From a virus (Duplodnaviria; Heunggongvirae; Uroviricota; Caudoviricetes), in the IMG/VR virus record IMGVR_UViG_2718217715_000009: a stretch of DNA of 48,944 nucleotides; one strand, 5' to 3'. Below, piece after piece: positions 21,001 to 24,000 of the stretch (position 1 is the stretch's first letter; each line of letters begins with the position of its first letter). The position numbers were made by a program.

Positions 21001-24000
21001 CTGATTTCTGGTTTTTTCGGGGTCGCCGCAAAAGGTTCCACATTCGCCATGCTCCGCATCACGTTTCTTTTTCTGACCTGCCGGACGTCGCGCTGTGATG
21101 TACTCCGCCTTCCCCAGGCGAACCAGCACCTCCGCACACGGCTGTGCCACATCACGGATATCCCCGGCCCGGGCATCATGCGTGCCCTGCAGATACTGGA
21201 TTTTTGCCATCAGTTACTGCGGGAAGCTAGCGCCTCCCGCCCTCCTCATCAGACTCAGCCGCCGGACGCAGTTCCGTAGTTCACACCGGTGATCACAGCC
21301 ACCGCCGCGGTACGGCGACGACGCCAGTTGATCCAGCGCTCCGCACGGATGGCCACGCTGCCGGTCTGGAACATGGAGACCAGCTCCACCGGTGACGGTG
21401 TGCTGCTGTCGCTGGTCGGTTCAGACTGCATCTCCAGTGACGCTTCACGGGACATATCCACCGCCACACCACCGTCATCCGCCAGATAAATATCCGGCGC
21501 ATTCACCAGTACCAGCTGGTCACCCACATACTGGGAGACAATCACCGGCAGCCCCTGGAAGGTCCCGCCCAGCAGGGTCATGTCCGGATATTCCTTCTGC
21601 CCCAGCGCATTTTTACGCATGGACAGCGCCAGGGCATTCGTGCTGGACATCAGCCAGACCGCACCGGTGGGCTGCAGATTTGCCGTCACAAACTGGCCAA
21701 ACGCGGCCTCGGCATCCGCATCCGGATTACCGCTTGACGCCGTGCCCTTCACATCATGGGTGATGGACGCAGGGGAGACATCTGCCACCGCCGCTTTTTT
21801 CGGGTCCACAAAGTCTGTATCCAGACGCGCCACCACCGCTTCCGCCAGCGCATTACGGACCAGTGCATCAGCAGCCGGACTGGAAAAACGGATCAATTCT
21901 TCCGTCAGTACCGCAATGGCCGACACCTTCGCATGACTGAAGGTGATGGATTCAAAATCAAACTTCGTCAGGGGTCTGGCCTTACCCTCCCCCACCCAGC
22001 CGGCAGCTCCGCCGGACACCTGGGCATGCACACGGATATTGAACGGCACCTGACGAAGTGCAGGGATCCCGCCCTGACCAAATCGCCCGATAATGGTCTG
22101 AGGACGCAGGTAATCAATAAAGTCCTGTGCGTATTCCTGATATTCAGACAGGCTGCCTGCCCACTGCGGATCCGTGGTGGTCCCCGCGCCACTGCCGATT
22201 TCAGGACATGATGCAGACGACTGTCATCCGGATACTGACGACGGGCCACTTCCAGGGCTTCAGAGCGGACACCTTTAGCCGCAGCCAGCGATTTGGCAAA
22301 ACGTGCGAAACCAATCCCCTTATCCAGTTTCTGCTCCACACGGATCACCGGCGCAGAAGCCACCGCGGCCACATTCCCGTTACCGGCCTGTTTCACTGGC
22401 TGCGCCGTGGCGGCCTTACCGGCTTCCAGTTCACGCAGGCGCTTCAGGTGCGCATCCACCTGACGTATTTCCGCTGCGGTGTTGTCGTAATGCTCTTCCT
22501 CCTCCACATCCAGCGTGCGCCCTTCCTCTGCGGCTTTGGTCATGACCTCCTCAAGGGAGGCTGCCAGTGCTGCACGCTTGTTTTCAAAACTTTTAATCTG
22601 TTCGCCAATATTCATTATGGTCTTTTCCTTATGAAAAACGGTTGTTGACTGTGCCGCAGCGCCGGCAGAAGATGCGATTTTCACCACCGGTTTCCGGTTG
22701 CCGGACGCGGCAGAAAACTGGCGGTCGTAAGATTTAATGGTCCGGATGATGCATTCCGCATTCGCGGGCACGGTGACGGCAGACACCTCCATCAGCTCCC
22801 AGCGCAGAAAATGCAGTCCGCCTCCGTCCAGAAAGGTGTATTCATGAGGACGGAAGCCCACGGACAGCCCCCTGACCAGCCCGGTCTTAATGGCCGCCCA
22901 GGCCTCATCCAGCCTGGCAGCCAGTTGCGATGGCATATCCGGCACGGGCTTCGCCAGTGTTGCCGTGATTTCCAGCCCTTCGCTGACCCGGCGCACCGTA
23001 CACTGCCCCACAGGGCGGGAATGGTCATGCTGCCAGAGAAACGGGAGCGCACTGCCAAACTCCGCGCCCTCCGGCTCCAGGATGTCACCATCCCGATCCG
23101 GAGAAGGCGTTGACGCAATCCCGGTGATCACCCGCTCATCCTCACTGAAGGATTTCACCGTCAGCAGGGAGCAGGCCCGTTTAAGAGTCACATCAGCCTC
23201 CTGAAAATAAAAAAACCGCCGCAGCGGTCCATGATGGTTACAGGGTGAACAGGGTTATATGAAAAAAACCGCATATTCTTTCTTTTTCGGCTCCGGATTC
23301 AGGGACATCAGGGATACCGCATTGAAGAGCGCCATCAGCGGGTCAATTTTCCCCCGTCCGCTGGCCTGTTTGGTGATAAGAATGGCGTTACCTTTAGGCT
23401 CCACCCGGGCATTGCCAACGCACCAGGCCATCAGTGGCTGACCACCATGCACCAGCACTCCCTCAGCCAGTTTGCGCTCGGTGGTTTTGATGGCCCCGCC
23501 CAGCTTCCAGCCCTGGCTTATCCCCACCACACTCTCATCGGGGATCCCGGCTTCCGCCAGTGAATCCAGAATCTGCCCCACACCTGACGGGTCAATACCG
23601 ATATGATCCAGTAACTCAGCCTCATGAATACGACGCACATACTCCGCCACTTCCGCCGTGTCATCCCCGACCCGACGGACAATCGTCATGTCTCCACAGG
23701 CCACAAAATCCTGAAACCGGGATACCTCACTCTTCCGTCTGACCACCGCGGTTTCATGCACCCAGGCATGGCCCCAGCCCAGCCATTCGCGGGTTTCCCT
23801 GTCACGGCCAGTCACGTACATTCCCAGCAGATCATCCAGGCCCCCGCCGTCAATCCCCACCGTCACCACATCAGCGCGCTGCAGGATATCGTCCAGGCTG
23901 ACGCGCCTGCCCTGCTGCTCCCAGAAATCCGCGCCCGCCCAGCGGTCAGAACGCAGGGCAAGACCGATTTCCACATTGGCGTGTTTTGACATGAAGCCAC

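Follow-up and report, generated by a model that had tools for sequence, protein, structure and literature searches.

A fused protease–capsid gene in a lambdoid prophage of E. coli O157:H7

The stretch of DNA analyzed here (48,944 nt; hereafter the window) is 99.99% identical to positions 3,131,616–3,180,559 of the chromosome of E. coli O157:H7 strain 4276, the differences being one 6-bp repeat unit and one SNP. It carries a lambdoid prophage with an integrase, Rac-type regulators, lysis genes and an HK97-style head and tail-shaft module, and the effector genes nleL and espN occupy the place where its distal tail genes would be expected. The locus under study is the head-shell gene of this Stx-phage-like prophage of E. 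coli O157:H7, in which a prohead protease, a scaffold-like segment and a major capsid protein are encoded together (Table 1). We considered Sakai Sp17 as the identity of the prophage and dropped it, as the window element retains the full head and tail-shaft module; Sp17 has been described as severely degraded (PMC2669165). The gene, its protease–capsid fusion and its pseudogene status are already on record in public annotation, with RefSeq labelling it 'phage major capsid protein, frameshifted' on the 99.99% identical record.

Table 1. Features of the fused gene and its surroundings, in positions of the window
Feature	Position	Strand	Basis and remarks
Fused prohead protease / scaffold-like / major capsid gene, here a pseudogene	21255..23191	-	1937 nt (intact orthologues 1938 nt, 645 aa); ORF list, RefSeq, intact orthologues
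GTG start (23191..23189) and upstream AGGAGG (23202..23197)	23189..23202	-	Sequence; start also annotated in intact orthologues
Peptidase_S78 (HK97 gp4-type prohead serine protease) domain, aa 48–151	22739..23050	-	Pfam PF04586, hhalign, alignment
Invariant protease residues His55 and Ser110	23029..23027 (His55); 22864..22862 (Ser110)	-	Invariant columns in family alignment
AAGGA core (22630..22626) and ATG of Met193 (22615..22613), putative internal start	22613..22630	-	Comparative sequence
Scaffold-like (delta-domain-like) helical segment, aa 193–334, frame still kept	22190..22615	-	Helix prediction, Pfam
1-bp deletion, G3 to G2, codons 334/335 (plus-strand CC, CCC in relatives)	22189..22190	-	Pairwise alignments; exact string looked up in 12 loci
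73 out-of-frame codons at the end of the truncated product (ARGPPRIRSGQ...) and stop	21968..22189	-	ORF list
Capsid body in the −1 frame; Phage_capsid (PF05065) match 22037..21288	21255..22187	-	Pfam, PDB sequence match

A 407-aa ORF (23191..21968, minus strand) runs from the protease region through ..TVFHKEKTIMNIGEQ.. up to ..HHVLKSAV without a stop, which bears out the preliminary description of this DNA, where no stop codon had been seen between the protease and the scaffold-like and capsid domains. After ..HHVLKSAV the capsid frame is lost, and the capsid body (GAGTTTDPQWAGSLSEYQEYAQDFIDYLRPQ..) carries on in the −1 frame to 21255. The N-terminal part belongs to Peptidase_S78, with a PF04586 match of 32.4 bits against a cut-off of 21 (aa 48–151), and residues 24–163 of HK97 gp4 align to aa 20–157 (hhalign: probability 83%, E 8.5e-6). 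When the hhalign result was combined with the family alignment, Ser110 fell on gp4 Ser114, and the invariant His55 lay one column off gp4 His65; Duda and colleagues are said to have identified His65 and Ser114 in 2013 as the catalytic residues of HK97 gp4. The predicted catalytic His and Ser of Peptidase_S78 are thus present in the fused protein.

At the other end, the translation of 22190..21255 belongs to the HK97-family capsid proteins (PF05065, 57.4 bits against a cut-off of 24.2), and its PDB sequence match was the major capsid protein 9d9w (E 4.7e-6). The intervening scaffold-like segment, whose N-terminal sequence pattern we take to be typical of HK97-family capsid precursors, is predicted to be helical across much of aa 195–335, with a weak coiled-coil Pfam match at aa 189–210. 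An AlphaFold2 model of the intact 645-aa protein, built on an alignment of only 15 sequences, reached a mean pLDDT of 39; within the segment, values were 61–79 for aa ∼200–260, 27–40 for aa ∼260–312, modelled as unstructured, and about 50 for the remainder. In outline, the ∼645-codon ORF of this phage family would encode an HK97 gp4-type serine protease (aa 1 to ∼160), a variable linker and a capsid precursor, the latter beginning at Met193 with the helical scaffold-like segment and ending in an HK97-family shell domain.

The fusion is the normal arrangement of the phage family

Whether related phages encode a fused protease–capsid ORF had been left as a question by the preliminary description. 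They do: the Stx phages BP-4795, 1717 and WGPS8 carry intact 645-aa orthologues annotated 'major head protein/prohead protease', and diverged relatives carry fused ORFs as well. A protein search returned 2393 homologues. Among the best 120 of these, nearly all full-length proteins (580–650 aa) have both Pfam domains, and 111 of the 120 measure 635–650 aa. The best-scoring homologues, 73–77% identical to the query, come from Salmonella, Enterobacter, Klebsiella, Serratia, Pantoea, Kosakonia and others in the Enterobacterales.

To cover more distant relatives, we used a scan with one genome per species, which yielded 36 distinct loci, 31 of which were full-length and analyzed. The gene is a single ORF in 26 of these 31 diverged loci, and remains fused at 34–49% identity in Rhizobium, Methylobacterium, Brucella, Mesorhizobium and Candidimonas (alpha- and beta-proteobacteria), so that intact fused orthologues are found across the gamma-, alpha- and beta-proteobacteria. 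In the other five loci, a stop interrupts the protease frame after 197–380 codons. Four of these (Diaphorobacter, a second Brucella prophage and two Snodgrassella strains) plainly have distinct genes for the protease and the capsid protein. A fused gene is the normal and ancestral state of this phage family, not a sign of damage.

Start signals at Met193 suggest separate production of the capsid precursor

In the four relatives with separate genes, the capsid gene starts with a Met exactly at the residue homologous to Met193 and has its own ribosome-binding site upstream. These split capsid proteins begin MKTIIEQI.., MATYAEQI.. or MTIEEQI.., compared with MNIGEQI.. in the window. In the alignment of fused genes Met193 is invariant, whereas the linker preceding it is variable in both sequence and length. 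We therefore looked at the nucleotide sequence around this position in the fused set, comprising the 26 diverged genomic loci and one near-identical E. coli orthologue (n = 27). A start codon is present at the Met193 position in all 27 fused ORFs (ATG in 25, TTG in one and GTG in one), and a Shine–Dalgarno-like core (AAGGA, AAAGGAA, AAGGAGG or GAGGA) precedes it in 27 of 27, these loci being related sequences rather than independent trials. Predicted pairing with the anti-Shine–Dalgarno sequence was ≤ −5.3 kcal/mol in 23 of the 24 scored loci, compared with 16% of 342 other in-frame ATGs of the same ORFs. Hence, a conserved ribosome-binding site and a start codon, the combination by which we recognize a nested gene, lie together at the domain boundary.

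The preliminary description had read the missing stop as implying a 'polyprotein rather than separate genes'. The single fused ORF stands, but the conserved core and start at Met193 make the claim probably too simple. If the intact gene were expressed as a polyprotein only, the purine core and Met193 would owe their conservation to a role in the protein, for example in a cleavage site or a linker. The continuous ORF in 26 of the 31 relatives fits such expression, as does the strong GGAGG site in front of the ATG that serves as the full-length start in the enterobacterial relatives, and a rough volume estimate leaves room in the procapsid for about 415 protease and scaffold domains. We nevertheless consider polyprotein-only expression unlikely, at something like one chance in a few. 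The core encodes different residues in different ORFs (K-G, K-E, E-G or E-D) and yet keeps its purines, and the Gly codon of the core is nearly always GGA, a rare codon in these ORFs (7.8% of Gly codons). The presence of the start codon in every fused ORF, and the exact coincidence of this position with the start of the split capsid genes, likewise argue against it. Phages also offer precedents: in the lambda C/Nu3 and Mu I/Z genes, internal starts set the ratio of protease to scaffold.

Two points speak against reading these signals as a start site. The K-G/E motif could instead be kept for its role in the protein, perhaps as a site cut by the protease, and the exchange of Met for Leu or Val is a conservative amino-acid substitution too.

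Taken together, the conserved core and start codon at Met193, and the split relatives whose capsid gene starts there, suggest that the capsid precursor is probably also made alone, by internal initiation at Met193. The intact gene would then yield two products, a full-length protease–capsid fusion and a more abundant capsid precursor starting at Met193. As one of the capsid subunits, the fusion would be built into the procapsid and carry the protease inside, and the protease would then remove itself along with the scaffold segment. We found no description of internal start signals for this fused protease–capsid family in the literature searched.

A one-base deletion removes the shell domain in the window copy

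Alignment with intact orthologues, a check proposed in the preliminary description, located the frameshift that had been noticed in the capsid gene. Compared with the intact copies of strain 2013C-3342 (99.7% identical) and Stx2a phage WGPS8 (98.7%), the window gene differs by one indel only, a 1-bp deletion at codons 334/335, where GCAGTGGGCGCGGGG of the intact relatives reads GCAGTGGCGCGGGG. The lost G belongs to a G3 run that spans the two codons and lies directly 5′ of a CGCGGGG tract. The frameshift had been placed near a CGGGG tract, at 22180–22226; this interval does include the site, but the deletion sits in the adjoining GGG run and not in the tract itself. Around the site the intact protein, 645 aa in total, reads K-S-A-V-G-A-G-T-T-T-D, whereas the mutant product has 334 correct residues and 73 out-of-frame ones, ending at the stop at 21968. 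In the window gene the frame is broken between the start and the shell domain and, since the whole Pfam capsid match lies downstream of the lesion, no shell domain can be made. Translation from either start would give only the protease and/or scaffold segment followed by 73 junk residues. The window gene is a pseudogene.

The deletion is an inherited mutation of one O157:H7 sublineage

Indels in homopolymers are a typical long-read error, and a single laboratory, working with PacBio RSII, produced most of the complete genomes that have the allele. The frameshift could therefore have been introduced at a G/C run during sequencing or assembly, with the true gene intact, and the preliminary description had held that such an error must be excluded before the prophage is called dead. 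The G run is only three bases long, however, and the deleted allele recurs in independent data. An exact 81-bp allele centered on the site was found in 8 of 5426 complete E. coli genomes, all but one of them labelled O157:H7 and similar in size. One of the eight strains was isolated from a human and belongs to a Korean collection. The other gene-bearing genomes (∼1050) all differ from the 81-bp allele; among the matches listed, every one with 98.8% identity was one base longer, meaning that the extra G was present.

The exact 407-aa truncated product was encoded on 18 contigs, including six read-run assemblies (SRR, DRR) and one draft genome. We confirmed the deletion at the DNA level in the six independent read-run assemblies, whose contigs were 100% identical to the window, and in the draft genome. 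Two of the allele-bearing complete genomes, of strains Gim1-1 and NE92, are PacBio assemblies that had been polished in Pilon using Illumina reads (PMC10758439). Conversely, the genomes of MB9-1 and F6667, from the same laboratory and platform, have the intact GGG in the same context; strains 2149, Gim1-1, NE92 and F6667 are adjacent in the published tree (PMC10758439). With independent assemblies and Illumina-polished genomes in agreement, assembly error is excluded as a concern: the mutation is genuine and has been inherited within one O157:H7 sublineage, and an artefact is very unlikely.

Polishing of near-identical repeats could in principle homogenize paralogous copies. Against this, the long-read assemblies contain three copies with different flanks, and the short-read contigs have the deleted allele only.

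The same allele occupies several prophages of one chromosome

The deletion is not confined to the prophage in the window. In strain 4276, the capsid gene of the Stx2c prophage at 1.977 Mb is annotated 'frameshifted' and carries the identical deletion; this copy and the window differ at only two positions across 18612–24115, with dozens of SNPs in the flanks. In strain 9234, the allele was present at 1.977, 2.53 and 3.155 Mb. These three copies agree over window positions 20301–23290 with at most one difference, again with dozens of SNPs in the flanks. For the 2.53 Mb prophage, the near-identical tract (20301–23290) is embedded between terminase and portal flanks of a different type, and the contig of the draft genome has the flank type of this third prophage. 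Searches reported four places per genome for the capsid gene, three of which we located. The fourth paralogue was not at the prophage site we had guessed, 345–394 kb of strain 9234, which contains core genes only.

With identical tracts of 3–5.5 kb set in diverged flanks, the copies indicate that the deleted allele was spread by prophage-to-prophage recombination. Homologous recombination, in the form of gene conversion as far as the comparison of copies suggests, would have copied the deletion among at least three paralogous prophages of one chromosome, the Stx2c prophage included. Short G runs do slip, and the V gene is likewise shifted at a G run, so a mutational hot spot that produced the deletion separately in each copy deserves mention. 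We consider it highly improbable, given that the three copies share about 3 kb of identical sequence, all synonymous positions included, within flanks that are 2–3% diverged, and that the allele occurs in only 8 of ∼1060 genomes with the gene.

Least probable of all is a programmed ribosomal frameshift or other recoding by which the full-length capsid protein would still be produced: although a −1 slip would bring the frame back, and tail-chaperone genes of such phages employ programmed −1 shifts (the HK97 annotation has one), the lesion site G GCG CGG is no slippery heptamer (X XXY YYZ), the protein is encoded in a single frame in >1000 genomes and all diverged relatives with no conserved two-frame arrangement, and the deleted allele is limited to one sublineage.

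Further defects and consequences for phage production

The prophage is defective beyond its capsid gene. The tail tube gene V (16209–16926) has a G5 to G6 insertion near 16729, confirming a second frameshift at a G run that had been noted earlier. The V G6 allele turned up in the eight genomes that have the capsid deletion; the 2.53 Mb prophage has it too. Following the K-like C40 peptidase gene of the window, I, J and fibre genes are absent, and only nleL, espN and IS remnants follow. With the capsid deletion real, V frameshifted and the tail genes I and J missing, the prophage can be called dead.

The RefSeq annotation also calls the portal gene 'frameshifted', which is probably not a defect, judging from its relatives. 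In all diverged relatives and in the window, a portal gene of ∼450 aa and the next ORF are separate with an ATGA overlap; only in the 2.53 Mb copy does an extra G join the two into an 859-aa ORF.

The window prophage is unable to build heads from its own capsid gene, and the same applies to two other prophages of the same strains, including the Stx2c prophage. The deletion thereby bears on whether cattle-associated O157:H7 strains can release transducing Stx2c phage, and it illustrates cleanly how recombination can carry an inactivating allele from one paralogous prophage to another. The conserved start signals, in turn, offer a simple, testable model for the protease-to-capsid ratio in fused genes. 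We have high confidence in the explanation as a whole, that is, a fused architecture, a real deletion, its spread by recombination and two putative products of the intact gene. As to its meaning, we lean slightly towards a reading in which the conserved internal ribosome-binding site would serve to make the capsid precursor separately, while the minor fusion product would dose the protease into the procapsid; secondarily, the capsid-null allele in three prophages would block the production of infectious Stx2c phage. The frameshift and the fusion are ordinary in themselves, and what modest interest the locus has lies in the spread to three prophages and in an internal start signal found across three proteobacterial classes.

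Comparison with known systems

The closest known genes are those of BP-4795, Stx2 phage 1717 and Stx2a_WGPS8 (genus Pankowvirus), with 97–99% nucleotide identity to the window gene. These phages share with the window the gene order HNH, TerS, TerL, protease–capsid, small ORF and portal, as well as the GTG start and, in the intact form, the 645-aa product. The window copy differs in having one G fewer at codons 334/335, so that its shell domain cannot be made.

HK97 has a separate arrangement, with gp4 and gp5 belonging to the same protease family and capsid Pfam family (PF05065) as the window gene. Like the window family, HK97 has no separate scaffold gene, the scaffold function residing at the N terminus of the capsid precursor (the gp5 delta domain). 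HK97, however, has two genes after the portal where the window has one ORF before it, and the scaffold-like segment is about 140 aa long in the window family, compared with 102 aa in HK97, as quoted in PMC8508860. HK97 gp5 did not align with the family profile in hhalign, the capsid parts being too diverged.

A single-gene arrangement of protease, scaffold and capsid is known from Pseudomonas phage MD8, whose gp5 (693 aa) combines a lambda C-like protease with a Mu-like capsid protein, and which we liken to the window gene by arrangement only; the section on MD8 discusses no internal start (PMC8508860). In actinobacteriophages, 'major capsid and protease fusion' is a standard annotation label (PMC12760985). 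Two further candidate precedents were set aside: a CBASS preprint, which concerns a scaffold–protease fusion, and a CapRel paper, in which the 'single open reading frame' is a toxin–antitoxin system.

For expression, the nearest parallels are the nested genes lambda C/Nu3, Mu I/Z and P2 gpO, which have an N-terminal protease and a C-terminal assembly protein that is also made from an internal in-frame start, much as we infer for the window family. Among them, lambda C is of another protease family. The comparison with these nested protease/scaffold genes draws partly on PMC8508860. The C-terminal part of all three is scaffold only, with the capsid protein encoded by a separate gene, unlike in the window family, where scaffold-like segment and capsid are encoded in one piece.

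Tail tube and capsid lesions in other prophages

Across the 48.9 kb of the window, only two differences from strain 4276 were found, an additional hexanucleotide repeat unit and a single-nucleotide substitution (coordinates of all features are collected in the table below). The eight complete O157:H7 genomes that have the capsid deletion are also those with the exact G6 allele of the major tail tube gene V. In strain 9234 a second prophage, located at 2.53 Mb, has this V allele as well, so that, like the capsid allele, it seems to have passed from one prophage to another by copying. 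The dead capsid allele is also carried by the Stx2c prophage of the window's O157:H7 sublineage (L005 in strain 4276), but V is intact there. The Stx2c prophage of strain Gim1-1 has been called intact (PMC10758439).

Features of the window and of the related Stx2c prophage
Feature	Position	Strand	Remarks
espN, type III effector gene	2082-5483		beyond K-like C40 peptidase gene
nleL, type III effector gene	6074-8422		beyond K-like C40 peptidase gene
K-like C40 peptidase gene	8726-9463		followed by effector genes
Major tail tube gene V	16209-16926	minus	frameshifted; G5 to G6 insertion near 16729
Portal gene and next ORF	18465-21043	minus	junction 19679-19682; portal labelled 'frameshifted' in RefSeq
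Tandem 162-bp (54-aa) repeats	18925-19517	minus	within ORF 18465-19682; ..ITPDDVRPMLEQMVKEAVSHIPVPRDGRDYDPDVLQKAVNDAV..
Head module	20989-25476		terminase small and large subunits, protease-capsid gene, 73-aa ORF, portal
Conserved 73-aa ORF	20989-21210		between protease-capsid gene and portal; overlaps portal start
Additional CTCAGG unit	40849-40854		hexanucleotide repeat in DnaT-like replication gene
SNP	45888		in exoribonuclease-domain pseudogene
L005, Stx2c prophage	1,965,654-1,989,734 (strain 4276)		same dead capsid allele as window

Portal gene and distal tail region

The 454-aa portal ORF and the 405-aa ORF downstream of it are joined by an ATGA overlap, and the two are separate genes in every diverged relative checked. 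In a strain 9234 paralogue (L050), one more G at the equivalent of position 19699 yields a single ORF of 859 aa, and this fusion may be the source of the RefSeq pipeline's frameshift call. The downstream ORF contains the 54-aa tandem repeats; where it is annotated with the portal as one CDS, the span varies among paralogues and phages (2423-2585 nt). At the distal end (1-9500), tail genes I and J and the fibres are absent, and a gogB fragment and IS2/transposase remnants accompany the two effector genes beyond the peptidase gene.

Head gene order

The head gene order of this prophage is unusual: in HK97, the portal gene precedes the protease and capsid genes, whereas here it follows the protease-capsid gene.
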